Shown: positions 74-41,777 of the stretch, piece by piece
Position numbering within the stretch: the stretch's first letter is position 1
Layout of the letters: each line of letters starts with the position of its first letter
DNA from: an uncultured bacterium
GTDB taxonomy: Bacteria; Omnitrophota; Omnitrophia; Omnitrophales; Aquincolibacteriaceae
Length of the DNA stretch: 64,000 nt
Assembly (NCBI GenBank): GCA_964434115.1
Contig: CAYSSX010000001.1
Coordinates: forward strand, 85,571-149,570
Direction of reading: 5' to 3'
The notes under the pieces: generated by a model
Told to the model about the DNA's origin: nothing
The model's database searches: none
The model's input: only the letters and a program-made list of their open reading frames with translations
Translations under genes and position numbers: made by a program

Positions 74-736
74 TTGGCTTTGGCCCTGATTTCGTTTGCC
101 TGCGGGTTTTTTATGGGGGCCGCGGCCACGCTGGAAACGCACCACGACCCGGTCAAGGCTTTGGGACTTAAAGAAACACGGCCCGGGTTTATGGATTGGT
201 TCCGCAGCACGTTTGCGCCCGTGGTCACGGTTCCCGGCCATCAGCTTGACGGCAGCTTTGTGTTTGCGGATTTTGAATCCGTGGGGGATTTCAGTTTATG
301 GAAAACCGAGGCCGCTTACCTTGAGGTGGCGCAGGAAAATTTTTCCCAAGGCAGTCACTCGGTCAAAATTTCCTACCACAACAACACGCGCTTGTCGGCA
401 GTCACCATGGAAAGTTATTTCAACAGCCGCTACGCGCTCTCCGACTGGTCGGGGTACCGGGCACTGGCTTTCTACCTCTACAACCCTCAGGAAACGCGTG
501 AACGGATTATTATTCAGATCAAGGACCGCCGGGGAAAGCGTTACAAGGAAGACCTCGTGATGGACCCGGACCGCGGCACGAATTTCGTGCTGGACCTTGA
601 CCGCATCCGCAAAGAAATCGACATTCACAGGATTGAGCACATCAACCTGTTTGTCTGGGATTCCAAAGAAGAGAAAGAATTCTTCCTCGACCACCTCCGC
701 CTGCTTCCTGTGAATGAAGGGGGGAAGAACGGATGA
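74..736 (+). CDS. Hypothetical secreted/membrane-anchored single-domain protein, paralogous to the N-terminal extracytoplasmic domain of the downstream 1119-aa protein
   Basis: ORF uses TTG at 74 (alternative ATG at 113). Hydrophobic N-terminus ALALISFACGFFMGAAA. Shares motifs DGSFVF(A/S)DFE, SDW(S/T)GY..L.F and EF(F/Y)(L/F)D.(L/I)RL(L/I)P with residues about 110-260 of the next ORF. Stop overlaps next start (ATGA). Confidence 0.6.
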   Translation: MALALISFACGFFMGAAATLETHHDPVKALGLKETRPGFMDWFRSTFAPVVTVPGHQLDGSFVFADFESVGDFSLWKTEAAYLEVAQENFSQGSHSVKISYHNNTRLSAVTMESYFNSRYALSDWSGYRALAFYLYNPQETRERIIIQIKDRRGKRYKEDLVMDPDRGTNFVLDLDRIRKEIDIHRIEHINLFVWDSKEEKEFFLDHLRLLPVNEGGKNG

Positions 737-3700
737 GGTTTTCTTCGCTGAAAAATATCCTGCTTGTGGCGGCCAGCAAGCTGCGGATTCTCGCGGGCTC
801 TCTTTTTCCGCCACCGCCCGCAGAGCCGCCTTCTTCCGGAGGCAAACCCGGCCGGCGGCGCCGCCACAAAATCCCGAACATGCCGGTGCTGCTGCTGATC
901 TGCCTGGCTTCGGGGGTGATCGCGGGGTATGCGACCACCTTGGCTATTCTTAAAACCGCGGATGCGGTGGTTCATGCGGGTGAAAATTCCGTGCACCTGA
1001 TCCGGTTTGTGTTTGGAAAATCCATTCCGCTTGTGGGGAAAATATCAGATGGAAGTTTTGTTTTTTCGGATTTTGAAAAGCCGGGCAGTGAGAAAGCCTG
1101 GATGCCGATCGGAGCCTCGTTTGAAAGCACGGACCGTTTTCCCTCGCAGGGCGCGCGCACCGGGCATGTTTATTTTTCCTCCAAGGCCCGGCAATCCACC
1201 CTGATTCTTGATGATTTGCTGAAGAGCCGCAAAGGCGGCAGTGACTGGACGGGGTATAAGTCGCTATTTTTCACGGTCTTCACACCGGTCAAGGAAGAGG
1301 TCCGGCTTTCCATGCAGATTACCGACCTGTGGGGAAAACAATACCGGGAAATGATGAAATTTTCAGGCGGCCGCGGTGTTTCCATTTCAATCCCTCTGGA
1401 AAAAATCGCGGGGGTTGTGACCCTTTCGAAAATTGACACGCTTGCTTTTTCCATCACGGATGAAAAAGAAGACCGGGAATTTTATTTTGATGACATTCGT
1501 TTGATTCCCAAAGGCAAACGCGAACCTTTCGGTGCCGTTTCGGGCGGTGAAGCTTCGCAGGCTCAAGCCCGGAATGTGCCGCTCGAAAAGCGGAAGGTGA
1601 ATTTCTTTGATTACGATTTCAAGTCCCGCAAGGCGGCCTGGACTTTGGGGCAGGCCGGGCCTCTGAAAGATATTGTGAGGGTTCCTTTTGTGGTCAAAAA
1701 CGAAACTCCGTACCCCTGCCGTTTTTGTTCGGTGGAAGGCGCGCTTCCGTTTCCCGCCGGAGAATTAAAGGACCTTGAAAAAATGAGGCTGCACACACCC
1801 AAGGGCGAGGAAATTGCTTTTCAGCCGCGCGTTTTGTCCCGCTGGCCGGATGGTTCTGTGCGCTGGCTGGCTCTTTCCTTTGAAGAGTCTCTCGGATCCT
1901 GGCAGGGCACGGGTTACTTTTTGGACTACGGTGCCGGGATCCGGCGGATGGCCGCTCCGGAAAGCCGTCTGAAAGTCAGGGAAGACGCCCAGTCGGTGGA
2001 AGTGGATACCGGGGTTTTGCGGTCCGTGCTTGACCGGAATGCCTTTTTTCTTTTTTCCAAAGTTTTTGTGGATGAAAACGGCGACAGTGTTTTTGAAGAC
2101 ACGGAGCAGCGGGTTTCAGACGCCTCGCTCAGTCTTGTTTTCAGAGGCAAGCAATTCCGGACGGATCTGTCCCGGGCCGACTATAAGCTCGAGGTTGAAG
2201 AAAAGGGGCCGCACCGCGTGGTGATCCGCGCCGAAGGCTGGTTCAAATCCGAAGAGGGCAGCCGGTTTTGCAAGGCCATTGTCCGCTACTATTTTTACGA
2301 GGGCAAAAGCGAGGTCAAGATTGCCCACACGCTGATTTATACGGGGTACCCGGAAAACCGCTTTTACGGAGAGTATGAGGGTTTGGACCTTCCGGCCAAC
2401 GAAACCGTGGAATCTTTCGGCATCCAGGTGCCGCTGAAGGGCTGGAAAGAAGACGAGCCTTTGGCTTTGCGTCTTGGCCGTCATGACGCGCCTCCGCTGG
2501 AGCTTGCGGCCAATGAAAAAGTCCGCCTGGTCCAGAAGGGCTGGGAGCAGTCGGTTCTGTATAAAGGCCCGGAAACTTTGGAAAACCAGGGGCTTTTTTC
2601 CGGATGGGCGGAAGTCTCCTCGCCCGTGCGCGGTCTTTCCGTCTCGGTCCGGCGGTTCCGCGAAAATTATCCCAAGGCCTTTGGGTTTGACCCCGCGAAG
2701 CAGGCACTGGAAATTGACCTTTGGCCCGCGGAGCAGGGGCCGCTTGATTTGTCCACAACGGCCAAGGCCTTGGGCCCTGGGGCCGCGGCCCGGGGCAATG
2801 CCTTTGGTCTGGGGAAAACCCACGAAATGCTTTTTTACTTTCACCGCGGCAACGCGCGCGATTCGCTGGAAAAAATGGAAAGCTTTTCGCGCCGCCTTCT
2901 GATCCGCAGCAATCCGTTTTGGGCGGATGCCACGGGCGCGCTGGGCCGTCTTTTTCCTGCCGATAAGCGCTATCAAAAACAGGAACTCATGCTTGAAGAA
3001 TTATTTGATTGGGCGGACCGTCACCCGAAATACTTTCAATGGTACGGCATGATTAATTTCGGAGACACGCTGACCTGGTGGCGCAGCAAGGACGAGGAAA
3101 AAGATTACGGCGAGTTCGGCTGGCATCCGGAGGGCCGCTGGGGCTGGTACAACGCGGAAGGCGTGGGAACGCACACCGGCAGTCTGCTTCAGTTTGTCCG
3201 CAGCGGGAAGTGGAAGTATTTTGAATTCGGGGAAAATCTCGCGCGCCATATTTTTGACATCGATACCATTCACTACAACACAATCGCCGAAGACCCGCGC
3301 CTTAAAAAAGTGCTGAACGATGAGTTCTCCCAGCCCGGATCCATGCACCGCCACAACGGCGACCACTGGGGCGGGCGCAGTGATGAGGCCAGCCATACCA
3401 ATCTGAACGGGATCCTTCTTTATTATTACCTCACGGGGGATGAACGGGCCTGGGACGTGGCCCGTGAGATTGGAGAGTTTTTTCTTAAAGAACGTTTTAC
3501 TTATGCGGGGCACCCTGACATCGCCCCGCACCGCGGCCTCGCCAACGCTCTCTGGGGAGATGTCCTGATGTTTGAGGCCACGGGCGATGAACGGTACAAA
3601 AATGCCGCGGATAAACTCATTGAAATTTTCTTAAAGGGGCAGCAGCCGGACGGAAGTTTTCTGGAAAATTACAATCCCCAGAAAGATTCCTGGTCCGGTG

Positions 3701-4092
3701 AAAAAGAAGAGTTATTCATGTCGTGGTATGACGTGGGCGCCTTTATCAGTTATCATGAACTCACTCAGGATGTGGCGGTCAAGGAAATGCTCCTCAAACT
3801 GGTCAGGTACCTGGCGAAAAGCGAATCTTCAGGCCCCGTGATTCTTCATGGGCTTGCTTACGCTTATCTGATATCCCATGACGCGGAACTGATCAAGCTA
3901 GCGGAGAATTATCTGGCCGTGATTTTGAAAAACCAAATCAACTCCGAAAATCCCGTGCTGGACGGTTTGATTTACGATAAGCCTATTTACCACAGGCCCA
4001 ATATTTACCTCTACACGGTTCCCTATGTCTTCGGGGCTTTGGAGGAAGCTTACATTCAGGAGAGGAAGGCCGCCGCGGCGGCGCAGGTATGA
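733..4092 (+). CDS. Large (1119 aa) membrane-anchored multidomain protein. Pro/Arg-rich N-terminal tail, one TM helix, beta-domain shared with ORF 74-736, long middle region, and a C-terminal about 380-aa W/Y-rich domain with duplicated LTGDER(A/Y) motifs. Putative glycan hydrolase/lyase-like protein of the EPS locus.
   Basis: Long uninterrupted ORF. RBS-like GAAGGGGGGAAG before ATG 733. TM segment PVLLLICLASGVIAGYATTLAIL. Paralogy to upstream ORF. C-terminal motifs WYGMINFGDTLTWW, HRHNGDHWGGRSDEASHTNLNGILLYYYLTGDERAW and MFEATGDERYKNAADKL resemble repeat helices of alpha/alpha-toroid carbohydrate-active enzymes (inference, not verified). Sits immediately 5' of deacetylase/GT2/exosortase genes. 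Confidence 0.7.
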   Translation: MRFSSLKNILLVAASKLRILAGSLFPPPPAEPPSSGGKPGRRRRHKIPNMPVLLLICLASGVIAGYATTLAILKTADAVVHAGENSVHLIRFVFGKSIPLVGKISDGSFVFSDFEKPGSEKAWMPIGASFESTDRFPSQGARTGHVYFSSKARQSTLILDDLLKSRKGGSDWTGYKSLFFTVFTPVKEEVRLSMQITDLWGKQYREMMKFSGGRGVSISIPLEKIAGVVTLSKIDTLAFSITDEKEDREFYFDDIRLIPKGKREPFGAVSGGEASQAQARNVPLEKRKVNFFDYDFKSRKAAWTLGQAGPLKDIVRVPFVVKNETPYPCRFCSVEGALPFPAGELKDLEKMRLHTPKGEEIAFQPRVLSRWPDGSVRWLALSFEESLGSWQGTGYFLDYGAGIRRMAAPESRLKVREDAQSVEVDTGVLRSVLDRNAFFLFSKVFVDENGDSVFEDTEQRVSDASLSLVFRGKQFRTDLSRADYKLEVEEKGPHRVVIRAEGWFKSEEGSRFCKAIVRYYFYEGKSEVKIAHTLIYTGYPENRFYGEYEGLDLPANETVESFGIQVPLKGWKEDEPLALRLGRHDAPPLELAANEKVRLVQKGWEQSVLYKGPETLENQGLFSGWAEVSSPVRGLSVSVRRFRENYPKAFGFDPAKQALEIDLWPAEQGPLDLSTTAKALGPGAAARGNAFGLGKTHEMLFYFHRGNARDSLEKMESFSRRLLIRSNPFWADATGALGRLFPADKRYQKQELMLEELFDWADRHPKYFQWYGMINFGDTLTWWRSKDEEKDYGEFGWHPEGRWGWYNAEGVGTHTGSLLQFVRSGKWKYFEFGENLARHIFDIDTIHYNTIAEDPRLKKVLNDEFSQPGSMHRHNGDHWGGRSDEASHTNLNGILLYYYLTGDERAWDVAREIGEFFLKERFTYAGHPDIAPHRGLANALWGDVLMFEATGDERYKNAADKLIEIFLKGQQPDGSFLENYNPQKDSWSGEKEELFMSWYDVGAFISYHELTQDVAVKEMLLKLVRYLAKSESSGPVILHGLAYAYLISHDAELIKLAENYLAVILKNQINSENPVLDGLIYDKPIYHRPNIYLYTVPYVFGALEEAYIQERKAAAAAQV

Positions 4093-4874
4093 AGAACGCT
4101 GTCCCTGTTCTTAATTATCACGGCATCCAGTCCCGGCCCGGTGAGTACGGCTGGCATACGGGTGAAAAAATTTATGTTTTGCCTTTGGCCTCGTTTCAGG
4201 AACAGCTGCAGGGGATCGCCCGGAAACACGGCGCGCTTGCGAGCGAAGATCTGTCTTCTGCCGCGACAAAAGAGGGCGTGCTTCTGACTTTTGATGACGG
4301 CCATATCAGCCATTACGAACACGCGCGGCCGGCCCTCAAGGCTGCGGGATTTACAGGGATTTTTTTTATTTCCGCGGGGATGATCGGAGAAAAAGATTTT
4401 ATGGACGCGGCCCAGCTGCGCGAAATGGCCAGCGATGGTTTTGAATTGGGATCCCACGGTTATCACCATGTGCCCTTGCCCGGCCTTTCCAGCGCTCAGC
4501 TGAAGGTGGAGATGCAAGACTCCCGGAAAAGACTTGAGGATGTGACCGGCCGCGAAATTCGCAGCTTTTCCATCCCGCGGGGTTTTTATCATCCCCGGAT
4601 CCGGGCCGCGGCCGAAGAAGCCGGCTACCGTTTTTTGTTTACCTCGCATTTTGGCCTTCACACGACCGGTACGGATTTGTTTTATATCCGCAGGATGGCA
4701 GTCACTCAGGACACCACGGCGGGGCAGTTTGAATCCTGGCTTCAAGGCGATTTGGGCGCGATGCGCTGGGTGGAAGAAGCCAAGGAAAAGGCGCGCCAGT
4801 GGATCGGGCCCAAAGGGTATGAGAAAATGGCTCTTTTGAAGGCCCGCCTCCGGGGCGCGGGCAGGGGAATTTAG
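4089..4874 (+). CDS. Polysaccharide deacetylase, NodB-homology domain (PEP-CTERM/exosortase-locus type)
   Basis: Motifs LTFDDGHISHYE and GSHGYHHVPL (NodB Asp-Asp and His-His metal-binding motifs). ATGA overlap with upstream gene. Location in exosortase locus. Confidence 0.85.
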   Translation: MKNAVPVLNYHGIQSRPGEYGWHTGEKIYVLPLASFQEQLQGIARKHGALASEDLSSAATKEGVLLTFDDGHISHYEHARPALKAAGFTGIFFISAGMIGEKDFMDAAQLREMASDGFELGSHGYHHVPLPGLSSAQLKVEMQDSRKRLEDVTGREIRSFSIPRGFYHPRIRAAAEEAGYRFLFTSHFGLHTTGTDLFYIRRMAVTQDTTAGQFESWLQGDLGAMRWVEEAKEKARQWIGPKGYEKMALLKARLRGAGRGI

Positions 4875-4875
4875 A

Positions 4876-6018
4876 ATGATTCTTTTTTGGCTGTCCGTAC
4901 TGCTTGTCCTTTATACCTACGCCGGATACCCGCTTATTCTCATGTGGCTTGCGCGGGTTTCCTCTCGCCCCGTGAAAAAAGGCTCTTATGAACCGCGCGT
5001 GAGCGTGATTGTCTCCGTGTATAACGAAGAGCGGTTTATCGCCGACAAGATTAACAATCTCCTGGCGTTGGATTATCCGGCGGAAAAAATAGAAATCCTG
5101 ATTGGCTCGGACGGCGGCACGGACAGCACGGATGAAATTGTTTCCGGCATCCACGACCCGAGAATCCGGTTTTTTAGATTTGTCGCGAATCTTGGAAAGC
5201 CGCATGTTTTAAACGGGCTGATCGCGGAAGCTCACGGCGCAGTGCTTGTGTTCACCGATGCCCGCCAGCGGTTTGAACCTCAAGCGGTCCGCAAGCTGGT
5301 TGAAAATTTTTCAGACCCTGATGTGGGCTGTGTTTCCGGAGAACTGTATTTTGAGGAAGCCCGCGGCAGCGGCGTGGCGCAAGGGATGGACGCTTATTGG
5401 AAGTATGAAAAATTTCTCCGTAAAAAAGAAGGGGAGATTGCTTCCATGCTGGGGGCCACCGGCGCCATTTACGCGGCCCGGGCCGATCTTGTCCCGACGC
5501 TTCCCCTGAATATCCTTGTGGACGACATGTACATTCCTCTGGCGATTGTTGCGAAAGGGTACCGCGCGGTTTTTGAGAGTGAAGCGCGGGCCTACGACCT
5601 TGCCTCCAGCAAAGGGACACAGGAATTGAAACGAAAGGTCCGCACGCTGTCGGGAAATTTCCAGATTTTTGCGGCCTTTCCAGACTTGTTAAAACCGTGG
5701 AAAAGCCCGGTGGCCTGGCAGCTCTTGTCGCATAAATTTTTGCGTCTTATGGTGCCGTACTTTTTGATGACCGCATTCCTGAGTAATCTTTTTTTATGCG
5801 CCCATCCTTTTTACTGTTTCTTGCTGCTGGTGCAGGCTGCTTTCTACAGTCTTGCGGCATTTGAGGCCTTGCGCGTGCACTTTTTTCCGCAGATGAAACC
5901 TTTCCGGCCCGCGGCGCTTCCCTACATGTTCTGCCTGCTCAATTTTTCTGCCGCGGCCGGGCTTCGTCAGTACCTCAAAGGGCAGCCCAAAGCCGCGTGG
6001 GACAAGGCTTACCCATGA
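4876..6018 (+). CDS. Family 2 glycosyltransferase, membrane-embedded processive type (N-terminal TM helix plus C-terminal TM bundle)
   Basis: VSVIVSVYNEERFI...LIGSDGGTDSTDEI (GT2 DxD region) and DDMYIPL. Hydrophobic N-terminus and C-terminal multi-TM region, as in PgaC/cellulose-synthase-like synthases. Confidence 0.85.
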   Translation: MILFWLSVLLVLYTYAGYPLILMWLARVSSRPVKKGSYEPRVSVIVSVYNEERFIADKINNLLALDYPAEKIEILIGSDGGTDSTDEIVSGIHDPRIRFFRFVANLGKPHVLNGLIAEAHGAVLVFTDARQRFEPQAVRKLVENFSDPDVGCVSGELYFEEARGSGVAQGMDAYWKYEKFLRKKEGEIASMLGATGAIYAARADLVPTLPLNILVDDMYIPLAIVAKGYRAVFESEARAYDLASSKGTQELKRKVRTLSGNFQIFAAFPDLLKPWKSPVAWQLLSHKFLRLMVPYFLMTAFLSNLFLCAHPFYCFLLLVQAAFYSLAAFEALRVHFFPQMKPFRPAALPYMFCLLNFSAAAGLRQYLKGQPKAAWDKAYP

Positions 6019-6123: not shown

Positions 6124-6999
6124 TTGTTTAATTCTCAAACTATGACCTCAACATCCGAACAAACCCATTTCAGCTGGAAAAAGCTTCTGCTTCCGGGCCT
6201 TGCCTGCGCGGGGCTTTTGGCCTGGGTCTATGCCCCTACCTTTGAGTGGATGGTGGACCGCTGGTCGGTCCGCGATTCATATTACGGACACGGTTTTTTG
6301 ATCCCGCTGGTTTCTCTGTTCTGGATTTGGCAGAAGCGCGCGGAAATCGCTAAGGCCGTACCCGAGTCCAGCGCCTGGGGCTTTCCTGTTTTGGCCGCAG
6401 CCGCGGTGCTTCAGATTTTTGCCGCTGTTTTCAGGGTTTATTTTATTTCTGCTTTTTCTTTTGTGTTCATGCTTTTCGCGGGCGTTCTTTTGCTGGGCGG
6501 TCTGCGCCTTCTCAAACTTGTGTGGTTTCCTGTTTTCTTTCTGACCTTAATGGTCCCGCTTCCGCTTTTAATGATTTCTGAAATCACCCTGAAAATGAAA
6601 TTCCTTGTGACTGAAATGGCGGTGCATTGCCTGAACGCAGTCGGCCTGCATTCCGAGCGGCAGGGCAGTTACATTGTTCTTCCGAACACGTTCCTGCTGG
6701 TCGGAGACCCTTGCAGCGGCCTGCGCTCCTTTCTTTCTTTTCTTTGTCTGGGGTTTGTTTTCGCTTACGGCGGAAGGACCGCGTGGTGGGGAAAACTGGT
6801 GCTTGTTTTTGCCGGGCTGCCGCTTGCCATCCTTTCAAACTTGATGCGGGTTTTCTTTTTGGGGCTTGTCGCGGAAGTCTACGGCCAGGAAGCCGCGGGC
6901 GGCAAAATCCACGACGTTTCCGGAATTGTTGTCTTTATTATCTCGTTCTGCATTTTTATGGTGATCCGTCAAAAGCTGGAGGGGTCGCATGCAGGCTAA
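6124..6999 (+). CDS. xrt: Exosortase (PEP-CTERM protein-sorting transpeptidase)
   Basis: Polytopic membrane protein. Catalytic-Cys motif GDPCSGLRSF and conserved Arg in SNLMRVFFLG, typical of the exosortase/archaeosortase family. Adjacent EpsI gene and PEP-CTERM substrates. Confidence 0.85.
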   Translation: MFNSQTMTSTSEQTHFSWKKLLLPGLACAGLLAWVYAPTFEWMVDRWSVRDSYYGHGFLIPLVSLFWIWQKRAEIAKAVPESSAWGFPVLAAAAVLQIFAAVFRVYFISAFSFVFMLFAGVLLLGGLRLLKLVWFPVFFLTLMVPLPLLMISEITLKMKFLVTEMAVHCLNAVGLHSERQGSYIVLPNTFLLVGDPCSGLRSFLSFLCLGFVFAYGGRTAWWGKLVLVFAGLPLAILSNLMRVFFLGLVAEVYGQEAAGGKIHDVSGIVVFIISFCIFMVIRQKLEGSHAG

Positions 7000-7603
7000 A
7001 ACAGCCAAAGGCCTCATCCCGTTTGTGCTTGTGCTGGGCGCCTTGAGTTTCTTCCGCCTCGCGCTTCCTTCCGCAATGACTATTGCCGGGGAAGTCAGCC
7101 CGTTTTTTAAAACCTTTCCCCTCGAAATCGGCGCATGGAAAGGCGAAGAAATTGTTCCGGATGAACGCGATCTTCAAATTCTGGAAACGCGCAATGTCTT
7201 GTCGCGCAATTACCGCAATGCGGCCGGCGACTCTTTGCATCTTTTTCTGGTCAGTTCCAAAAAAGACCGCCGCGTCGCGCATCCGCCGGAAGTCTGTTAT
7301 GTTTCCTCGAATTTCAACGTGGTCAATGCCCGTGAGACCACGATTCAGGGGCCGGATGCCAAGATCATTCCGGTAAAGGAGTTTACGGCTGTTCCGGAGC
7401 GTCAGCCGGACAATGCCCAGGAAGTTTTGTACCTTTACAAGATCGGAAACCGGTTTACGACTAATTACTATGCCCAGCAGCTTCAGTTCGCTTTGGATAA
7501 TTTGTCGAAGAATGATTCCGAGGTTTTGATGATTCGTCTGGCAGGAAGAAACAAGGCTGTTCTTGAGGAATTCCTCAAAGAATTAATCCCGGTTTTGAAT
7601 TAA
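6989..7603 (+). CDS. epsI: EpsI-family exosortase-associated protein
   Basis: N-terminal TM anchor LIPFVLVLGALSFF. Motif AHPPEVCYVSS matches the conserved H-P-E-x-C signature of EpsI proteins. 11-nt overlap with exosortase stop. Confidence 0.75.
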   Translation: MQAKTAKGLIPFVLVLGALSFFRLALPSAMTIAGEVSPFFKTFPLEIGAWKGEEIVPDERDLQILETRNVLSRNYRNAAGDSLHLFLVSSKKDRRVAHPPEVCYVSSNFNVVNARETTIQGPDAKIIPVKEFTAVPERQPDNAQEVLYLYKIGNRFTTNYYAQQLQFALDNLSKNDSEVLMIRLAGRNKAVLEEFLKELIPVLN

Positions 7604-7902
7604 CCTTCCCGGGCAGCGTCTCAACTCTAACGCTGCAGACTGCAAAAGACAAAGGACACTTCGTTCACGCGAAAGGCTTTGCCTTGAGGCGAACGGGATG
7701 TCCTTAAAAGATGTAAGTTTATGAAAATGCAGAGGTTGTCAAAATCGCCGGTTATTTAAACAAATCTAGACAAATGTTGTTTTTTTTAGACATTCTGAAA
7801 TTGAAACTAAGATAAGTGACTTTGATGACAAAGCTTTTTAATTGTAAGTCATTCAAAATAAACAAGTTACACAATGTTTTAAACAGGTTAGTTTGAAATT
7901 AG

Positions 7903-7920
7903 TTGGCATGGAAAGTGCAT
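7903..7920 (+). promoter_or_regulatory. Sigma-54 (RpoN) -24/-12 promoter candidate upstream of sugar transferase / PEP-CTERM genes
   Basis: TTGGCATGGAAAGTGCAT = TGGCAT(G)-N4-(G)TGCA with exact GG-N10-GC spacing versus consensus TGGCACG-N4-TTGCA. Lies in a 330-nt AT-rich intergenic region, about 55 nt before ATG 7977. Confidence 0.5.
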
Positions 7921-7976
7921 AGAGTCTGAATGCTGAAGTGCACTTATTCAAATATCCCCGTCATAAGGTGAGCAAA

Positions 7977-8732
7977 ATGAAAACGTTATGGAATGAAGAA
8001 GTTAAACAAGGGTTTAACGCTCTGAGGGCTGATATCCAGCGAGATTATATGCTTCGCCGATATCAGATGCTCTCGAAGGGTGAAACCCCTGTTGAAGAAA
8101 AGCTGATGCACCATTTAACGCATGCCTATACGGCGGTGGTGACATCCTGGCGGCGTTTTTTGAAGCGCGTTTTGGATCTTTCGGTGTCTTTGATGGGGTT
8201 GACCTTGGGCGCGCCTCTGTTCCTGTTGATCGCCCTTGTCATTAAGCTCGACTCCCGCGGACCTATTTTTTACAAACAGCTTCGAGTGGGGCTTCGCGGC
8301 CGTACCTTTTACATCTATAAATTCCGCAGCATGCGTCAGGATGCGGAAGTCAAAAGCGGCCCGGTGTGGGCTAAAGAGAACGATCCGCGCATTACTCGTA
8401 TCGGGAATTTTCTCCGCAAAACGCATTTGGACGAGCTTCCTCAATTCATCAATGTCTTAAAAGGGGAGATGAGCCTTGTCGGTCCCCGCCCTGAGCGCCC
8501 GCACTTCGTGAAAGAATTGCGCAAAGTGATTCCGCATTATGACAAGCGCCATTATGCCAAACCTGGGGTTACCGGGCTTGCGCAGATCCGCCAGCGCTAC
8601 GATGAAACAACTGAAGATGTGAAGAAGAAAGTACGTTACGACGTGCTTTATATCAAAAAGATGTGTCCGATTCTCGATATTAAGGTGATCGCCATGACGG
8701 CGTTTACCATGATTCTGAGAACGGGCAGATAA
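7977..8732 (+). CDS. Exopolysaccharide polyprenyl-phosphate sugar transferase (bacterial sugar transferase family, WbaP/EpsB C-terminal-domain type)
   Basis: Motifs GPRPERPHF, PGVTGLAQI and YDVLYIKKMCPILDIKV, plus a TM helix LGAPLFLLIALVI. Start chosen at ATG 7977 (GGTGA RBS 8 nt upstream); the ORF could start at 7938. Confidence 0.85.
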   Translation: MKTLWNEEVKQGFNALRADIQRDYMLRRYQMLSKGETPVEEKLMHHLTHAYTAVVTSWRRFLKRVLDLSVSLMGLTLGAPLFLLIALVIKLDSRGPIFYKQLRVGLRGRTFYIYKFRSMRQDAEVKSGPVWAKENDPRITRIGNFLRKTHLDELPQFINVLKGEMSLVGPRPERPHFVKELRKVIPHYDKRHYAKPGVTGLAQIRQRYDETTEDVKKKVRYDVLYIKKMCPILDIKVIAMTAFTMILRTGR

Positions 8733-8796
8733 GAGAATGATTCCAGCTAGCGGGAATTACTTCTCTAATTTAAAAAAGAAAGGAGCTAGAAACAGC

Positions 8797-9504
8797 ATGA
8801 AAAAAACTCTGAGCTTGTTCGCACTCATCGCCGGATTGGTTATTCTCTCCAGCGCACGTGCGTACGCAGCTGTTCCGGTGATTGACGGAAGCGTCAGTCC
8901 CGCCACTGAATGGGATAATACTGGTTATAACTATTATCTCAACATCAGTGATCCGAACGAAGTTGATGTTCCTGATTCATACGACATCGCGTCAGCGACG
9001 TTGCTTCAGGAAATTGAAGGCTTCGGATTTGGAGATTCTAACGCTGCCAACGACGGGATTTACCTCCTGATCACGACCTATGCGACTCCTTCCTTCGTGG
9101 ATTTCACGTTGGGCGGTCCTAAGGTTACCGTGTATTTGGATGGTGATTTCGACGGCGATGGTATCGTTGATTTCTCACTTCAGCACACAGCTCTTGCTAA
9201 TGGAACCGGCCAGACGGTTACTGTAACGTTCAACGTTTTTGGACCTACAGGCGACCTTGTTGCAAACGGTGGTTCTTTCGCAGTGAACGGTGTGCTTGAG
9301 TATTTCATTCCTCACACGGGTTTCAATACCCCCAGCGTTCCTTTCCCTGGTGCGTTTGTTGGATACATCACCTATGATAATGGTGGTCTTCCTCCAGATG
9401 ATATCGCGACTGGCACCTTGGTTCCTGAGCCGAGCAGCATGCTTCTCTTCGGAGGCGCGTTGTTGGGTCTTTTGGGTGTGAATTTCAAGCGTTTCTCCAA
9501 GTAG
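8797..9504 (+). CDS. PEP-CTERM sorting-domain protein (exosortase substrate)
   Basis: AAAGGAG RBS before ATG 8797. Signal peptide MKKTLSLFALIAGLVILSSARAYA. C-terminus VPEPSSMLLFGGALLGLLGVNFKRFSK (PEP motif, TM helix, basic tail). Internal DGDFDGDGIVD Ca-binding-like motif. Confidence 0.85.
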   Translation: MKKTLSLFALIAGLVILSSARAYAAVPVIDGSVSPATEWDNTGYNYYLNISDPNEVDVPDSYDIASATLLQEIEGFGFGDSNAANDGIYLLITTYATPSFVDFTLGGPKVTVYLDGDFDGDGIVDFSLQHTALANGTGQTVTVTFNVFGPTGDLVANGGSFAVNGVLEYFIPHTGFNTPSVPFPGAFVGYITYDNGGLPPDDIATGTLVPEPSSMLLFGGALLGLLGVNFKRFSK

Positions 9505-9553
9505 TTTTCTTTCAATAGTTGCTATAATCCTCAAACATTATAGTTAGCTATTT

Positions 9554-9594
9554 GGTAAGAGCTCCTTACCCTGGCCCCCGAAAGGGGGCCAGGG
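9554..9594 (+). terminator. Tandem hairpins after the PEP-CTERM gene (putative intrinsic terminator)
   Basis: GGTAAG-AGCTC-CTTACC followed by a perfect 11-bp GC stem CCCTGGCCCCC-GAAA-GGGGGCCAGGG (9569-9594). No clean downstream T-run, so efficiency is uncertain. Confidence 0.45.
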
Positions 9595-9654
9595 ACTACT
9601 TGAATAATAAATGAAACCGTAGTACAAAGAAGGCAGTGAATCTTAAGGAAGGAG

Positions 9655-10485
9655 GTGGCCCGGCACATGGCACGTCACCCCGAAAATAATAAGCCACAGC
9701 AAAGCCTGCACCGCGAAACACTTATCGCGATTGCAAAGCAGCCCATTATTCCCGCGCTCTTCATACTTCTGGCAATTTTCCAAGCAGCAGGCTTGACAGC
9801 CCTTTTTCTTTCGCATTCCGAGCCGTTTTCGAGCATTTTGGGACCGATTATCCGCCGTTTTTGGGGGGAGCGTTTTCTGCATTATCCGGAAAACTTTCTT
9901 TTGCTGCCCAAGCTTTTTGGCCACTCTGAAATGGTGATCCTGACCCTTTTCGGTCTTCTGGTCACAGGCATTACGATTCAGCTTGTAGGCGCCGCCCGGA
10001 CCGGGGACAGCCGTGTCACGGCCGTGACCGCTTTTTCCGGCACCTTGAAAAAGTATCTGGGGCTGGCCGCTCTGTGGATTGCTTTGTTTTTCCTGCTTCG
10101 GACAGTTTCGAGAGCGGTACTGCCGTTTCTTCCCCCGCAGATTCCGGTCCATTACGCGGGTCTTCTGGCGGTTTTTTTATCCACGCAGGTTCTTACTGCG
10201 CTGCTCTTCCCGGCAATTCTTCTTTCTGGAAAAGGGTATTGGAAAGCCCTTGCGGAAGGTTTCTTGCTCTCCGTGAAGAATTTCCCCGTGCTGTTTGCGG
10301 CCTTATTCATTCCGGTGGCTTTAAGCGTGGCGGTCTCGTTCCTTAGGTCTTTGTCGCCGTCGATTTCGCATGATAACCCGGATTTTGTGCTCGTGATTTT
10401 GTACGGCAGTATTTTGGTTTCAACCGTTGTGGATCTCTACATCACCTCCGCGACGGCTATATTCTATTTGAAAGTGAGGAATTAA
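9655..10485 (+). CDS. Hypothetical polytopic integral membrane protein (about 6 TM)
   Basis: Long ORF with repeated hydrophobic helices. No recognisable catalytic motif. Embedded between two PEP-CTERM genes. Confidence 0.55.
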   Translation: MARHMARHPENNKPQQSLHRETLIAIAKQPIIPALFILLAIFQAAGLTALFLSHSEPFSSILGPIIRRFWGERFLHYPENFLLLPKLFGHSEMVILTLFGLLVTGITIQLVGAARTGDSRVTAVTAFSGTLKKYLGLAALWIALFFLLRTVSRAVLPFLPPQIPVHYAGLLAVFLSTQVLTALLFPAILLSGKGYWKALAEGFLLSVKNFPVLFAALFIPVALSVAVSFLRSLSPSISHDNPDFVLVILYGSILVSTVVDLYITSATAIFYLKVRN

Positions 10486-10492
10486 AATTCCC

Positions 10493-11212
10493 ATGAAACA
10501 TTTTAAACGTTATTTGGCGGGCTTCCTTTGCGCGGTTCTTCCGAGCTGGAGCCTTTACGCGGCGGTGCCCGATATGCCGCTGGTTTTCACGCCCTCCGCT
10601 CTTCCGATTGAAGAGCCGGCTGAAAAATTCATTGGCTGGTATGACCTGGTCTATCAGGATCAGGTTGCGCCTCCCACAGTTCCGCAGGCGATTGTGGACG
10701 CCTTATTTCCCGACCAGGAAATTGCGCTTCCTCAGATCTCTGGCGGTGTTTCCGTGCCTCTCGAAAAGCTTTCTGATGCGGACCTGGAAGAAGAACTTCA
10801 GGACGAACTCCTTTTAGATGAGGATGCTGAAGGCGAGCATTCTTCGAAGAAGCGGCTGGTTGTCGGCCTTCTTATTCTCAGTGCAGCGCTCGGGGCGCTT
10901 CTCTTACTTCTTTCGGGTTCTGGCGGCGGCTCCGGTTCTGGAAGCGGCGGCTCGTCAGGAAATGGTGGTGACTCCAACGGTTCCACGCCTCCTCCTGTGG
11001 GCGGCGGCGGTACCGGCGGCGGGAATGGAACAGGCCCGGGTACGGGACCTGGTACCGGCGGTGGCGGCGGCCCTGGTGTTGGCGGCGGTCCCGGCGGTGG
11101 TGGTATTACTCCTTTCTCATTTCCGAACAATGTTCCCAATAACCCGGAACCTTCGACCCTGTTTTTGATTGGCCTTGGATTGTTGTTGCCTTTTTTGCGT
11201 AGAAAAGGATAA
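10493..11212 (+). CDS. PEP-CTERM sorting-domain protein, acidic N-terminal region plus long Gly/Pro-rich low-complexity region
   Basis: Signal peptide MKHFKRYLAGFLCAVLPSWSLYAAVP. C-terminus NPEPSTLFLIGLGLLLPFLRRKG. Internal SGSGGGSGSG...GTGPGTGPGTGGGGGPG tract. Confidence 0.8.
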   Translation: MKHFKRYLAGFLCAVLPSWSLYAAVPDMPLVFTPSALPIEEPAEKFIGWYDLVYQDQVAPPTVPQAIVDALFPDQEIALPQISGGVSVPLEKLSDADLEEELQDELLLDEDAEGEHSSKKRLVVGLLILSAALGALLLLLSGSGGGSGSGSGGSSGNGGDSNGSTPPPVGGGGTGGGNGTGPGTGPGTGGGGGPGVGGGPGGGGITPFSFPNNVPNNPEPSTLFLIGLGLLLPFLRRKG

Positions 11213-11221
11213 TCCGAGTTC

Positions 11222-12634
11222 ATGAGAAAAACGTTTTTCCTTTTTTTGCTCGCGGCCTTTGCTTTTTCAGGCTGCGGTAAAAACTATCTTGCCGAGAAAG
11301 AGTTCTTTAAAGCAGAACAGCTGCTGAAGGGACTCAATCTTTCCCAGAGCCTAGATCCGCTCGACCAGGCTGTTGATGCCTTTCGCTCGGTCGCGGACCG
11401 CTATCCAGGCACACCCAAGGCGCTTGAAAGTCTCCGCCTCATTTCCAATATGCGTCTTAAACAAAAAAAGTATGAGGAGGCGCGAGAGGCCATGACGGAA
11501 GTCATTCAGAGTTTCGCGGCTTCCCAGGATGCTATTGCAGATGCCCGTTACCGTATCGGGGAAATCTACGAGATTGAAGAGAAGTGGGATGCTGCCGAAA
11601 AGTATTTTTGGGAACTTTCCGAGTACAGCCCCCTTCACGCAAAAGGCCTTTACGCTCCGATCAAAATTCTCCTCAATTACCGCAGGACTAAAGATGACAA
11701 AGGCTTTGAACGCGCGTATGTCAAAGCGTTGGACCATTACGAAAGTCTCCTTAAACAGGTAGGCCCCATTGAAGCCTCCGCGCCTGTCCGGAATTATTTG
11801 GGAATGGTTCAGATGATTCACGAAGATGCGGACAAGGCTCTTGCGACCTGGCTTTCCATCCCGCTGGATTTTCCCAAAAGCCCGCATGCCTCCATGGCGA
11901 TTCTGGCCGCCGCCGAATTGAACTGGAAAAATAAGGAATACGAAAAAGCCGAAGCTTTATATCAGCGCTTTTTCACGGAATACCCGGGGCACCCCTTGAC
12001 TGGAAGAACCGCGATGACTCTTGGCCTTGCCTATCACAGCAAAGGGGACTTTACCAAATCCCGTGAATCTTATCAGCGCGCACTGGACAGCGGCGGTTAT
12101 GCAGAAAAATCCCCTGAGAGATCGGAATTGAAACTTCTCATGGCGCGCAGTTATCAGGATGAACTGCTCTGGGATGAGGCCGACGCCCTTTATCAGGAGA
12201 TCGAATTGGCTTACCCCAATTCGTCAGCGGCGCTTCAGGTCCCGTTAATGCGCGCAGACCATTTTAATGAAGTGGGTGAGACGGCTCAGGCGCTGGATAT
12301 TCTTGATAAAGCCATCCGGCATTATGAAGTTTTGGCGGCGAATCAAAAGGATCCGAAAATTGTGAGTTACGCCCAGCGTTTTCGCTCGCAGGCTTTAGCC
12401 CGTAAAGGGGCCTGGAAAGAAATTGTTGATGATATTGACAAACGCATGGCTGAAGAGACAACGCCGGTCCGCAAAGGCCGCTGGCTTTTCTTAAAAGCGC
12501 TTATGACACAGAATCGTTTAAAGGATTCGCCCAAGGCCATTGAGTTATACGAAAGTTTTCTGAATCTTTACCCCGGTCATCCCTTAGAAGCCCGGGCAAA
12601 GACCCAGCTCGAACTCCTCCGCAAGCCCGCTTAA
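11222..12634 (+). CDS. TPR-repeat lipoprotein
   Basis: Lipoprotein signal with lipobox FSGC (MRKTFFLFLLAAFAFSGCG). Multiple TPR-like helical repeats (YPGTP/YPGHP tetratricopeptide motifs). Cf. PEP-CTERM-system TPR lipoproteins. Confidence 0.75.
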   Translation: MRKTFFLFLLAAFAFSGCGKNYLAEKEFFKAEQLLKGLNLSQSLDPLDQAVDAFRSVADRYPGTPKALESLRLISNMRLKQKKYEEAREAMTEVIQSFAASQDAIADARYRIGEIYEIEEKWDAAEKYFWELSEYSPLHAKGLYAPIKILLNYRRTKDDKGFERAYVKALDHYESLLKQVGPIEASAPVRNYLGMVQMIHEDADKALATWLSIPLDFPKSPHASMAILAAAELNWKNKEYEKAEALYQRFFTEYPGHPLTGRTAMTLGLAYHSKGDFTKSRESYQRALDSGGYAEKSPERSELKLLMARSYQDELLWDEADALYQEIELAYPNSSAALQVPLMRADHFNEVGETAQALDILDKAIRHYEVLAANQKDPKIVSYAQRFRSQALARKGAWKEIVDDIDKRMAEETTPVRKGRWLFLKALMTQNRLKDSPKAIELYESFLNLYPGHPLEARAKTQLELLRKPA

Positions 12635-12805
12635 CCCCCCCCGTATTAGCTTCTATAAACAATCCCCTAGTTTACTTTTTTAGACTTTTCTCGGTATACA
12701 AAACTAATCAAAAACAATCTTTTTAAAGCAATTTAAAACAACCTCTATGGGGTCATAACATATTGAAATAAAAGCACTTACGATTATATATTTCGCCCGC
12801 AAGCC

Positions 12806-12833
12806 TTGAATGGGGAAGTTCTTGTGATATAAT
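12806..12833 (+). promoter_or_regulatory. Sigma-70-like promoter candidate for the GAF histidine kinase gene
   Basis: TTGAAT -N16- TGATATAAT (extended -10 TGn-TATAAT) about 85 nt upstream of ATG 12918. Confidence 0.35.
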
Positions 12834-12917
12834 CCACACATCGTTTTCCAAAAGATTCATCATTGTGATTAAAAAAAACAACTTTCTGAATTCAAACCGG
12901 AAAAACCAGGACAGCCA

Positions 12918-14192
12918 ATGACCTCAGCGGTTCAAAGTTCCGAAAAAAGTTCCAGGCGTTTAGAATTTCTTCAGGAAGAACTGCACTCCACATCGCCTCA
13001 TTATTCTAATCCGGATCATTTCCTCGAATTCGTTCTCGATTCAACGCTTTCTGTCGTAAAGGCGCATGCAGGTTCTTTGTTTCTTTGGGATGAATCCAAA
13101 AAGGCTTTGGTCTTGAAGTCTTCCCGCGGTCCTTACGGGAACCGCCTTAACCATGTTCATGTCCGTCTGCGTGAAGGTATTTCGGGATGGGTGGGCGGCA
13201 ACGGCCGTTCTGTTCTTGTGAAAGACATTCAGGCCGATCAGCGCTTCAGCCAGTTTAAGCGCGCCGGGCAGTACAAAACGGACTCCTTTATTTCTCTCCC
13301 TTTAATTGCATCCAATAAACTTGTGGGTGTTATCAATGTGACCGAGCGGGAAAGCCTGAGCGCGTTTACTGAAGAGGATTTTGAACGCGCGCGCGTTTTT
13401 GCCCAGTACATTGCGATCGCTTATGAAAACATGCGTCTTGCAGCGAAGCACAAGATTGAAAATCAACAGCTTGGAGACCGTGTGATGCGCTTGGAGCAAA
13501 CCTTGCGCGATCAAGAAGCTCTGGTGTCGGTCGGCCGGCTTGCTTCCAATCTTGCCCATGAGCTTAATAACCCGCTGGACTCCATACGCCGCTATGTGAA
13601 TTTGGCCCTTGATCAAGTGATGGAAGATTCGGTTGCGAGACAGTACATTCTGAATGCCAAAGAGGGGATCCGCCGCGCGGTTCAAGTCATACGCGGCCTC
13701 CTTCAATATACAAGAGAAACCGGGCGCATTGAACGCCGGGAATCGGAAATTCATCGCGTGCTCAGAGACAGTCTTGAAAGCGCGGTGAAGGATCAAAGTT
13801 TTGGAAGCATTAAAATCGAAACGAATTTTAAAGCCCCTCCCGCGATTGTCTCGGATTGCGGACTGATGTTTGTTTTTAGAAATCTTTTCAAAAATGCCCA
13901 TTACGCCATGAAAGGCGCCGGAACCTTGACGGTGGAAACCCATTATGAAAATGAACGCGTGGTTATTTGCGTTTCGGATACGGGCTCGGGAATTCCAGAA
14001 GCTGTAAAACGCCGTCTTTTTGAACCCTTCTTTTCCACAAAAAAGGATGAGGGTACCGGGATTGGTTTAACGATATGCCGCGAAATTGTTCAGAAATGCG
14101 GAGGAGACATCTCCTTCGAAAGCCAGATGGGTGTGGGCACTCAATTCTTGATTCAAATTCCCTGTAAGAAAAAGGAAATTCCAGCCGCGTGA
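12918..14192 (+). CDS. Cytoplasmic GAF-domain sensor histidine kinase
   Basis: N-terminal GAF-like region. HisKA box LASNLAHELNNPLDSIRRY. HATPase G-boxes VSDTGSGIPE and GTGIGLTICREIV. No TM segments. Confidence 0.85.
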   Translation: MTSAVQSSEKSSRRLEFLQEELHSTSPHYSNPDHFLEFVLDSTLSVVKAHAGSLFLWDESKKALVLKSSRGPYGNRLNHVHVRLREGISGWVGGNGRSVLVKDIQADQRFSQFKRAGQYKTDSFISLPLIASNKLVGVINVTERESLSAFTEEDFERARVFAQYIAIAYENMRLAAKHKIENQQLGDRVMRLEQTLRDQEALVSVGRLASNLAHELNNPLDSIRRYVNLALDQVMEDSVARQYILNAKEGIRRAVQVIRGLLQYTRETGRIERRESEIHRVLRDSLESAVKDQSFGSIKIETNFKAPPAIVSDCGLMFVFRNLFKNAHYAMKGAGTLTVETHYENERVVICVSDTGSGIPEAVKRRLFEPFFSTKKDEGTGIGLTICREIVQKCGGDISFESQMGVGTQFLIQIPCKKKEIPAA

Positions 14193-15553
14193 AAAACTCT
14201 GTCCTTATTATTGAAGACAACGACCTTGTAAGAAACTCCCTGACGGATTTCCTGACTCTGGAAGGGTGCCAGGTGTCGCAGGCCTCTGACGGTCCCGAGG
14301 GGCTTGACCTTATTGTCCAAAAAACGTTTGATCTGGCACTGATTGATTTAAGGCTTCCTTCCGCAAATGGTATTTCCATTCTCGAAAAAGCAAAAGCGAT
14401 CCGTCCGGATATGGACGTTATCATGATGACGAGTTTTGGAACCGTGGAGACCGCTGTTGAAGCCATGAAACTCGGGGCAGTCCATTACCTGACCAAACCG
14501 ATCAACGATGATGAACTGAAAATTATTCTGAAAAGGCTTTCGGACACGCGCCATCTCCGGGAAGAGAACGAGCACCTTCGCCAGGAACTGGATGACAAGC
14601 GTTCCCATTTTCATAATTTGATCGGGCAGGACAGCAAGATGCAGAAAATTTACTCGATCATCAAAGCCATCAGTGATACCGATACAACGGTGCTTCTGCG
14701 GGGCGAGAGCGGAACGGGTAAGGGCATGATCGCCCAAGCGATCCATTACAGTGACCCCTCGCGCAATAAAGGCCCCTATGTGGAAGTGAGCTGCGGAGCC
14801 ATTCCCCGTGAGCTGCTGGAAAGTGAACTGTTCGGTCATGTGAAAGGCTCTTTCACGAGCGCAATCCGCGACCGTATGGGTCGTTTTGAGCTGGCGAATG
14901 GGGGAACAATCCTCTTGGATGAAATCGATTCCCTTCCGCCTTATTTGCAGGTGAAACTGCTCCGCGTTCTTCAGCAGAAAGAATTTGAGCGCGTGGGAGA
15001 CACGAAGACCCTTCATGTTGATGTCCGGATTATTGCTTCGACCAACCGTGACCTGGCTGCCGAGATTGCAAGGGGACAGTTCCGGGAAGATCTTTATTAC
15101 CGCCTCAATGTCATTACCATCGATGTCCCGCCTCTGAGAGAGCGCAAAGAGGATATCCCCGCGCTTGTGAAGCATTTTCTCAGTGCCTTTAATCTTAAAA
15201 CCCGCAGGATGCTTAAGACCGTGAGTTCCCAAGCCATGAAACGCATTCTTGACTATCATTGGCCGGGCAATGTCCGGGAGCTGGAAAATTTTCTGGAACG
15301 GGCGGTTGTTTTGTCGCAGGGGGAAGTCCTGGATGTCGATGTTTTTCCGGAGTATATCGGGAAGAAGAGTGAAGCGTATCAGGTCCCGGAAGTCGAAAAT
15401 ACCTCGTTGAAGGAAGTCCTCAAAGAACCTGAAAAGCAGATTATCAAGAAAGTTCTGGATCAAGTCGGATGGAACCGCAAAAAAGCCGCCGGCTTGTTGA
15501 ACATCAACCGCACCACGCTTTACAACAAAATGAAGGAATACCAGCTGCTTTAG
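14189..15553 (+). CDS. Sigma-54-dependent response regulator (NtrC-family bacterial enhancer-binding protein: REC, AAA+, Fis-HTH)
   Basis: GTG start overlapping kinase stop (GTGA). Receiver LIIEDNDLVRNSL...LIDLRLP. Walker A GESGTGKG. ESELFGHVKGSFTSA (GAFTGA-loop variant). C-terminal HTH AAGLLNINRTTLYNKMKEY. Confidence 0.9.
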   Translation: MKNSVLIIEDNDLVRNSLTDFLTLEGCQVSQASDGPEGLDLIVQKTFDLALIDLRLPSANGISILEKAKAIRPDMDVIMMTSFGTVETAVEAMKLGAVHYLTKPINDDELKIILKRLSDTRHLREENEHLRQELDDKRSHFHNLIGQDSKMQKIYSIIKAISDTDTTVLLRGESGTGKGMIAQAIHYSDPSRNKGPYVEVSCGAIPRELLESELFGHVKGSFTSAIRDRMGRFELANGGTILLDEIDSLPPYLQVKLLRVLQQKEFERVGDTKTLHVDVRIIASTNRDLAAEIARGQFREDLYYRLNVITIDVPPLRERKEDIPALVKHFLSAFNLKTRRMLKTVSSQAMKRILDYHWPGNVRELENFLERAVVLSQGEVLDVDVFPEYIGKKSEAYQVPEVENTSLKEVLKEPEKQIIKKVLDQVGWNRKKAAGLLNINRTTLYNKMKEYQLL

Positions 15554-41685: not shown

Positions 41686-41777
41686 CACAGATTGAACTTG
41701 TGGCATACTGAAGAATTAAGAAGCTGTAAAGGCTTTCAGCCATCATTATAAGACATTTAAATCAAAGGAGTTAGGTT

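Follow-up and report, generated by a model that had tools for sequence, protein, structure and literature searches.

A 64,000-nt stretch of DNA from an uncultured member of the Omnitrophota (hereafter the window) carries, at positions 7903-7920 of the + strand, the sequence TTGGCATGGAAAGTGCAT, which is very probably a functional sigma-54 promoter of the -24/-12 type. It stands upstream of a gene for a priming sugar transferase (a polyprenyl glycosylphosphotransferase, 7977-8732) in a locus that also encodes an exosortase, secreted PEP-CTERM proteins and, further downstream, a sensor kinase together with an NtrC-type enhancer-binding protein (EBP). Judging from sequence comparisons, we consider it likely that the promoter drives the sugar-transferase/PEP-CTERM genes with the adjacent EBP (14189-15553) as its activator. 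A sequence-only reading of the window had already suggested such an arrangement. Its sequence, coordinates and GG/GC spacing for the near-consensus element are accurate, and it placed both EBP genes of the window (14189-15553 and 47904-49295) correctly. It is the position of the element and its conservation, not the number of motif matches, that make the promoter call convincing.

A conserved -24/-12 element

The GG of the element occupies 7905-7906 and the GC 7917-7918, a separation of exactly 10 nt, which is the canonical sigma-54 spacing. Against the consensus TGGCAC-N5-TTGCW, 9 of 11 specified positions match and two do not. The ATG of the sugar transferase gene at 7977 lies 72 nt 3' of the promoter GG. 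The gap in which the element sits (7604-7976) comprises 373 nt of non-coding DNA bounded by the genes for EpsI (6989-7603) and the sugar transferase, and its GC content falls to 27-32%, compared with ~50% in the flanking genes. Its open reading frames (ORFs) are short, start with TTG or GTG, and include no credible one, and an Rfam scan of 7000-13200 returned only sub-threshold microRNA and snoRNA noise. The gap had been described as AT-rich, ~330 nt long and the only large one in the locus. AT-rich it is, but it is longer than that, and other large non-coding gaps are found at 12635-12917 (283 nt, AT-rich) and 9505-9654 (150 nt).

Taken by itself, the bare motif is not significant, because its count in the window is at chance level: TGGCA-N7-TGCW occurs once against 0.84 matches expected, and at least one match appears in 61 of 100 shuffles. 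The relaxed consensus, with two mismatches, is under-represented in the window (19 matches vs. 31 expected). The probability of the motif falling on the correct strand of one 373-nt gap is ~0.0025.

For both the sugar transferase and the EBP, nearly all homologues come from metagenome-assembled genomes (MAGs) of Candidatus Omnitrophota. Syntenic loci were gathered from contigs encoding these homologues and from one metagenome scan (narrow alignment, 9 loci), which gave 14 distinct loci: the window, L081, L083, L087, L089, L093/L106, L094, L095, L096, L100, L101, L103/L105, L104, and L107. TGGCA(C/T)-N6-TGC precedes the orthologous sugar transferase gene in every one of the 14, at a distance of 42-97 nt, and the transferases themselves are 54-88% identical to the window protein. 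When 13 non-redundant loci are anchored on the GG, columns -26 to -22 (TGGCA) and -14 to -12 (TGC) are invariant at 2.0 bits, and the columns flanking them hold 0-0.7 bits. The upstream gaps of the more distant loci have diverged past alignment, except for the element. The proposal that this is the sigma-54 promoter of the sugar-transferase/PEP-CTERM genes is strengthened accordingly, the element being invariant in 14/14 orthologous loci whose flanks are unalignable.

A position weight matrix (PWM) built from the 12 other loci, with the window left out, gives 7903-7920 a score of 25.4 bits, which stands clear of the background in the window, where the next best of 127,958 positions reaches 10.7 bits. 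That runner-up, at 42051, was rejected as a promoter because it lies inside the hisI coding sequence. Each locus of 10-21 kb has a single top-scoring site (20-32 bits), always upstream of the sugar transferase gene; the exception is L107, in which the promoter site scores <10 bits by PWM and was confirmed by pattern match.

One may ask whether TGGCAC...TGC is instead the operator of a dimeric regulator, or a conserved chance match, with an unrecognized sigma-70-type promoter in the gap doing the work. Some copies are indeed partly palindromic (e.g., GCACG-GAT-CGTGC in L081), minus-strand PWM matches reach 10-15 bits, and weak -10 elements can hide in AT-rich DNA. The conservation is asymmetric, however: the left TGG has no CCA partner on the right, as expected of a sigma-54 site and not of a dimer operator, and the conserved bases coincide exactly with those that sigma-54 contacts. 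A consensus scan of 7604-7976 found no sigma-70 promoter, and a lineage that has no EBP (L091/L092, see below) has replaced the element by TTGCAA-N17-TATAAT. In a background set of unrelated sugar-transferase loci from other phyla (L001-L080, 865 kb, among the matches listed), the core pattern turns up at a rate of 0.028 matches per kb per strand, which, set against conservation in 14/14 loci, excludes a chance match. We regard it as very improbable that the element is anything other than a promoter.

The adjacent kinase/EBP pair and a candidate enhancer

The kinase gene (12918-14192, + strand) encodes a soluble GAF-HisKA-HATPase sensor kinase, with no hydrophobic N-terminal segment in its translation. 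The EBP gene (14189-15553, + strand) encodes an NtrC-type protein with a receiver domain, Sigma54_activat (225.9 bits), AAA-lid, and the Fis-type HTH_8. By tblastn, the cassette, which runs from the sugar transferase through PEP-CTERM protein, membrane protein, (second PEP-CTERM protein) and TPR protein to the GAF kinase and the EBP, is present in all 12 lineages with contigs of sufficient length. Between EpsI and the sugar transferase, L094 and L095 have an insertion of six oppositely oriented genes and L107 that of a DUF8239 gene; despite these inserts, the regulatory region still lies directly upstream of the sugar transferase in all three. The promoter thus belongs to the sugar transferase-to-EBP cassette and not to the exosortase operon.

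L091/L092 are a natural control for this linkage. Their sugar transferase is 74% identical, its gene is placed between a GT2 gene and pgk, and the genes for exosortase, EpsI, PEP-CTERM protein, TPR protein, kinase, and EBP have been lost. PWM scans of L091/L092 found no -24/-12 match above 9 bits and no match to the palindrome described below, and the gap carries the textbook TTGCAA-N17-TATAAT instead of a -24/-12 element. Here, the EBP module and the promoter were lost together. The idea that the adjacent EBP is the candidate activator gains from this joint loss and from strict co-occurrence with the promoter elsewhere.

In the sigma-54 contact loop of the EBP, the window has GSFTSA and every orthologue GAFTSA, with the critical F and T retained. 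The recognition helix of the EBP's helix-turn-helix (HTH), NRKKAA-LL-INRTTLYNKMK, is almost invariant among orthologues that are only 65-84% identical overall, which fits a conserved DNA target.

A real sigma-54 promoter might nonetheless answer to a different EBP, either the one at 47904-49295 or one encoded elsewhere, with the adjacent pair controlling something else. Sequence alone cannot reveal the pairing of EBP and promoter, and the second EBP of the window has a near-canonical loop, GSFTGA. It lies 40 kb off, however, amid housekeeping genes, whereas synteny with the promoter holds for the adjacent EBP in 12/12 lineages, and in L091/L092 the two are lost together; palindrome-like sites also occur in the adjacent EBP's own promoter region. 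That another EBP is the activator seems to us quite improbable.

Where would the EBP bind? Activator sites had been expected in the AT-rich region 7604-7880, and two repeats, gtttgaaattagtt and ctgaaattgaaact (7797-7810, 7891-7904), had been put forward. As upstream activator sequences these must be set aside, being conserved in no relative, but the expectation about the region is met by another candidate, the conserved palindrome TGTTGTTTTTTTTAGACA (TGT-N12-ACA) at 7775-7792. It begins at -155 and is centered at about -146 from the predicted transcription start site (TSS). Plain k-mer enrichment was swamped by AT-rich low complexity, and a palindrome-constrained expectation-maximization (EM) search was used instead. 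Run on -375 to -56 of 12 loci, it returned TGTTgAtAATTtTcAACA, that is TGT-N12-ACA, with a log-likelihood of 74.8 vs. 28-31 for shuffled sets. A PWM made only from 7 distant, non-alignable loci gives 7775-7792 a score of 21.4 bits, the highest among 63,983 window positions (the next best has 13.9), and none of 2000 shuffled versions of the gap attains it. We lean modestly toward 7775-7792 being the binding site of the adjacent EBP.

Between this candidate enhancer and the promoter lies an AT-rich spacer (7793-7902) that presumably lets the DNA loop or bend. Low GC content is a constant of this interval, with 24-35% GC from -150 to -25 in 12/12 loci, and the same 12 loci show no conserved IHF consensus between enhancer and promoter. 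Close relatives have a second palindrome site (TGTTGAGATTTTGAACA in L096, TGTTGAGATTTTGAGCA in L081, TGTCCAGATTTTCAACG in L083), with 11-nt spacing and ~31 nt further upstream, or about three helical turns. The sequence of the window that aligns with these, TGTCAAAATCGCCGGTT (7737-7753, + strand), ~31 nt upstream of the main site, is degenerate and weak.

The kinase/EBP pair has a predicted promoter of its own, a sigma-70-type extended -10 sequence found by consensus scan at 12806-12833 (+ strand; TTGAAT-N16-TATAAT preceded by TG), and the arrangement TTGAnn...TGTGnTATAAT is conserved ahead of kinase and EBP in 8 loci. Between it and the kinase start codon there is a weak palindrome-like site, TGATTAAAAAAAACAACT (12866-12883, 8.7 bits), which is conserved in L081, L083, and L096 and whose equivalent in L087 scores 19.2 bits. 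Palindrome-like sites near the kinase/EBP promoter are also found in L094, L095, L101, and L103. Their occurrence there suggests autoregulation, for which 12866-12883 is a possible site.

A second upstream motif has a claim on the EBP. The direct-repeat motif GGnaTGTCCTGG has a log-likelihood of 60.7 compared with 32-37 for shuffles, and arrays of (G)GnaTGTCCnGG, with 2-4 copies at an exact 10-nt period, occupy the distal end of the region in L089, L093, L094, L095, L100, L101, L103, and L107. Such arrays lie at L089 7642-7660, L093 7603-7630, L094 7656-7676, L103 7736-7760, and L107 ~3417-3432. In the window, a motif search found a single copy of the TGTCC unit, GGGATGTCCTTA (7695-7706, + strand), which may be a remnant of the distal array that more distant loci carry. 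The array could be bound by the EBP through half-sites, or by a second regulator.

If the EBP docked on the phased TGTCC repeats, or on the half-site TGTC(C/T), the sigma-54 promoter would still be real and the palindrome would bind another protein, for instance a nucleoid-bending protein or a separate repressor or activator. In keeping with this, the arrays are conserved distally in distant loci and move with the promoter, and the palindrome is also found at places without a -24/-12 element. Yet no array is present in the window or its four closest relatives, which have one TGTCC copy and the palindrome at a fixed -155, and inverted repeats are the classical targets of the Fis-type HTH dimers of the NtrC family. 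Moreover, the palindrome half-site TGTC/TGTT overlaps the array unit, and therefore both elements may share one binding protein. On balance we find docking on the TGTCC repeats unlikely, and we retain the palindrome as the candidate site.

The favored account would run as follows. The kinase/EBP pair would have a transcript of its own, started at the sigma-70 extended -10 promoter at 12806-12833, and the sigma-54 (RpoN) holoenzyme would occupy the -24/-12 element as a closed complex and stay inactive. On sensing a ligand through its GAF domain, the soluble kinase would phosphorylate the EBP, which may then oligomerize on the TGT-N12-ACA palindrome at 7775-7792 (~-146) and reach the promoter by looping over the AT-rich spacer. 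ATP hydrolysis by the EBP would remodel the closed complex and open the promoter at 7903-7920. Transcription, beginning near 7930, would cover the first two genes (priming sugar transferase, first PEP-CTERM protein), and some read-through past the hairpin at 9569-9594 would probably extend it to the next three (membrane protein, second PEP-CTERM protein, TPR protein). The committed step of polysaccharide synthesis and an exosortase substrate would thereby be co-expressed in a switch-like manner.

Several observations weigh against this account. The window site has T at -21 where its relatives have C, and it reads GTGC in place of TTGC; all of the relatives are metagenomic contigs. The EBP loop GSFTSA/GAFTSA differs from the canonical GAFTGA; in this loop, A2S is experimentally validated as functional and G5S is putatively functional only (Francke et al. 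2011, PMC3162934). L106 has the EBP without an adjacent kinase. The window has one strong copy of the palindrome, its second copy having decayed. Among distant loci the position of the palindrome varies from -85 to -235, and it is found at the start of the multi-transmembrane (multi-TM) gene with no nearby -24/-12 element, so it may have functions besides that of an enhancer, or be the site of a different protein. The EBP might instead bind the TGTCC arrays. Lastly, rpoN is not in the 64-kb window.

An interval considered as lptB-rpoN-hpf, at 40921-45242, was rejected, as its genes are hisF, trpE, trpG, and trpD (42152-43642 is trpE). In L105, the orthologous EBP gene is followed ~2 kb downstream by an rpoN gene with all three sigma-54 domains (AID, CBD, DBD; 13537-15060, - strand). 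Between the two lie a PocR-GAF gene and another PEP-CTERM gene, with two GGDEF proteins nearby.

Leader, hairpins, and neighboring genes

The spacing rule from the -12 position predicts a transcript start at ~7930, followed by a short leader (7930-7976, + strand) with the Shine-Dalgarno sequence AAGGTGAG at 7965-7972, a block that is conserved in L081, L083, and L087. The leader shows no significant fold (z = +0.47). A long AT-rich leader had been proposed for this promoter; this does not hold, as the predicted leader is only ~47 nt because the bulk of the AT-rich DNA is upstream of the promoter. That DNA is candidate enhancer and spacer rather than leader.

At the other end of the gap, two RNA hairpins (7613-7636 and 7652-7705; together 7613-7705, + strand, -36.7 kcal/mol, z = -2.85) come right after the EpsI stop codon. 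Strong hairpins are found at the same position in L083 and L096, their sequence not being conserved. These structures probably mark where the exosortase operon upstream ends or is terminated.

The genes of that operon and its surroundings encode a PcRGLX-like protein (733-4092), a polysaccharide deacetylase (4089-4874), a GT2 glycosyltransferase (4876-6018), the exosortase (6124-6999; TIGR02602, 153.4 bits, cut-off 105.6), and EpsI (6989-7603; TIGR02914, 71.7 bits, cut-off 42.8). No exosortase subtype model reached its cut-off; for XrtA the score is 173 and the cut-off 208. The locus combines genes for exosortase (EpsH), EpsI, and PEP-CTERM-tagged substrates, which marks it as an exosortase/PEP-CTERM sorting system.

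Downstream of the promoter and on the + strand, the sugar transferase (7977-8732) matches TIGR03025 with 315 bits (cut-off 295.6) and PF02397 with 229.7 bits. Its N-terminal 60 residues (7977-8160) form a conserved cytoplasmic extension, RDYMLRRYQ...G..P.EE...SWR..KR.LD, that is common to all the sugar transferases of sigma-54 cassettes and has degenerated in the protein of L091/L092, whose cassette is lost. It is followed by a secreted PEP-CTERM protein (8737-9504, + strand) with a signal peptide, a C-terminal VPEPSS...KRFSK and a PF07589 score of 24.7 bits (cut-off 20.7); its true start is likely the internal MKKTLSL at 8797. Next come, again on the + strand, the multi-TM protein (9655-10485), a second PEP-CTERM protein (10493-11212; PF07589, 22.0 bits, cut-off 20.7), and the TPR protein (11222-12634). 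Beyond 15553, where the EBP gene ends, come pgk, tpi, secG, and recG. Strong TGT-N12-ACA copies are found where the multi-TM gene begins in L093 (9842), L094 (9806), L095 (9813), L101 (9546), and L103 (9549). They stand just after the probable post-PEP-CTERM terminator and are absent in the group to which the window belongs, and a simple enhancer model does not explain them.

The gap after the first PEP-CTERM gene holds two further hairpins (9514-9594, + strand, -30.4 kcal/mol, z = -3.65), an AT-rich one at ~9514-9553 and a GC-rich one at 9569-9594, which are conserved in 6 loci (the window, L081, L083, L087, L089, and L096). The GC-rich stem shows compensatory changes, with 7 such pairs in all, and the AT-rich hairpin is conserved in sequence even among loci that are otherwise unalignable. 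Rfam gave no match to the two-hairpin element in 9505-9654. It is a probable intra-operon terminator, attenuator or RNA stabilizer. The distant loci L093 and L095 have a hairpin and then a U-run at the same post-PEP-CTERM place, which suggests that the sigma-54 transcript is probably attenuated or stabilized after the sugar transferase and first PEP-CTERM genes.

Sigma-54-like strings were also encountered elsewhere. In L094, a secondary site, TTTTGGTACGAAAAATGCAG (15495, + strand, 16 bits), lies in the 3'-terminal part of the EBP gene, and a PocR-GAF gene begins ~255 nt further on. In the window, the gap between the gene of the second EBP and dnaK (49296-49502; dnaK ATG at 49503) has two on the + strand, directly after that EBP gene: CGGCACACTTTCTGCT at 49308-49323, with correct GG-N10-GC spacing, and TGGCACGGTAATTGAT at 49436-49451, with GA in place of GC at -12. 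They might be a sigma-54 input into dnaK, or nothing at all.

Comparison with known systems

The closest known parallel is the PrsK/PrsR/PrsT 'PEP-CTERM box' regulon of Proteobacteria. Haft et al. 2006 (PMC1569441) describe a 17-nt motif 1 ending in TTTACA, followed after ~63 nt by a -24/-12 motif 2. PEP-CTERM genes begin ~71 nt after motif 2, PrsK, PrsR, and PrsT act as the regulators, and the motif pair is stated to be confined to Proteobacteria (PMC1569441). For Aquincola, pepA has been shown to be RpoN1-dependent, with a mapped TSS and the promoter TGGCAC...CTGCTT (2023, PMC9850573). The sequence-only reading saw in the window a parallel to the PrsR paradigm, which is sound, and also a contrast with it, in that a -24/-12 element was now identifiable. 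The contrast is unfounded, because the paradigm already includes an explicit -24/-12 motif 2 (PMC1569441).

As in the Prs system, the -24/-12 element of the window lies ~70 nt before a start codon in a long non-coding region and has a candidate activator motif upstream. A kinase, an NtrC-type EBP with Fis-type HTH and a TPR protein likewise adjoin genes for exosortase, EpsI, exopolysaccharide (EPS), and PEP-CTERM proteins. The differences begin with the lineage, which is Omnitrophota. The EBP scores 394.7 bits with the PrsR model TIGR02915, under the cut-off of 502.6, and higher (469 bits) with the AtoC model. The kinase reaches 96.3 bits with the PrsK model TIGR02916 (cut-off 300), of which only the C-terminal half aligns; PrsK is a transmembrane protein, whereas the window kinase is a soluble GAF protein whose N-terminus has no membrane segment. 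With TIGR02917, the model for the TPR lipoprotein PrsT, the TPR protein scores 32.9 bits against a cut-off of 312.2.

The regulatory DNA differs as well. TTTACA, the hallmark of the proteobacterial motif 1, and TGTAAA are absent from 12/12 upstream regions, and the candidate enhancer motif of the window, TGT-N12-ACA, lies ~110 nt upstream of -24/-12 and not ~63 nt as does motif 1. Each Omnitrophota locus has one promoter, heading an operon that begins with the priming sugar transferase, whereas Proteobacteria have many single-gene PEP-CTERM operons, each with its own promoter. Because none of the PrsKRT hallmarks tested was found, we conclude that the system works like the Prs system without being a member of the Prs family.

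The layout also recalls NtrC at glnAp2 and NifA at nifH, in which an EBP (of a two-component type) acts from dyad sites ~100-150 bp upstream of -24/-12. The half-sites TGT...ACA of the window resemble the NifA upstream activator sequence TGT-N10-ACA, and the two sites ~31 bp apart in close relatives resemble the NtrC sites at -140 and -108. The dyad spacing here is 12 (11 in some copies), compared with 10 in the NifA sequence. Unlike those systems, the targets here are EPS and PEP-CTERM genes, and there is no IHF consensus between enhancer and promoter.

In Vibrio, SypG and sigma-54 govern the EPS operon syp, a case of a local EBP and sigma-54 acting on EPS biosynthesis genes, as proposed for the window. 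Sigma-54 control of exopolysaccharide and cell-envelope genes is a recognized theme (Francke et al. 2011, PMC3162934). The regulators of the window are not orthologous to those of these general sigma-54/EPS systems, and the enhancer motif is different. Consensus-grade TGGCAC-N5-TTGC sites were also seen upstream of distant sugar-transferase homologues from Planctomycetota/Brocadiia (L001 5670, L062 3298, L002 5972). Three Vibrio loci (L017 3558, L039 3601, L047 3622) have consensus-grade sites ~2.4 kb upstream and are possibly syp-like clusters.

Searches of the literature for Omnitroph* with PEP-CTERM, or Omnitrophota with sigma-54, brought up unrelated matter only, and no such control was reported there. 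In Proteobacteria, PEP-CTERM genes under sigma-54 control have been described before; ours is a non-PrsKRT case from another phylum, one for which such control had not been reported, and both its regulators and its enhancer are variants. It leaves the understanding of sigma-54 and exosortase systems unchanged. What it does is extend the sigma-54/PEP-CTERM link beyond Proteobacteria, its presumed limit in 2006, with non-orthologous regulators and a different enhancer motif. For a phylum with almost no cultured members and no genetics, it offers a concrete, testable circuit (sensor kinase, EBP, enhancer, and sigma-54 promoter) for the production of surface polysaccharide and PEP-CTERM proteins, and the promoter and enhancer PWMs can be used for regulon definition in Omnitrophota MAGs.

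A broader proposal can be put forward tentatively, and if anything we lean slightly against it. Omnitrophota would carry a self-contained sigma-54 cassette that evolved independently of the proteobacterial PrsKRT and was gained, moved, and lost as one piece. Its parts may be the soluble GAF kinase, the EBP with a GAFTSA loop, the TGT-N12-ACA enhancer, the 10-bp-phased TGTCC arrays, and the -24/-12 promoter, and it may be physically welded to the unit of priming sugar transferase, PEP-CTERM protein, membrane protein, and TPR protein. If this were true, the control of exosortase substrates by sigma-54 would be a rule that arose by convergence and spans phyla, and not a proteobacterial peculiarity.

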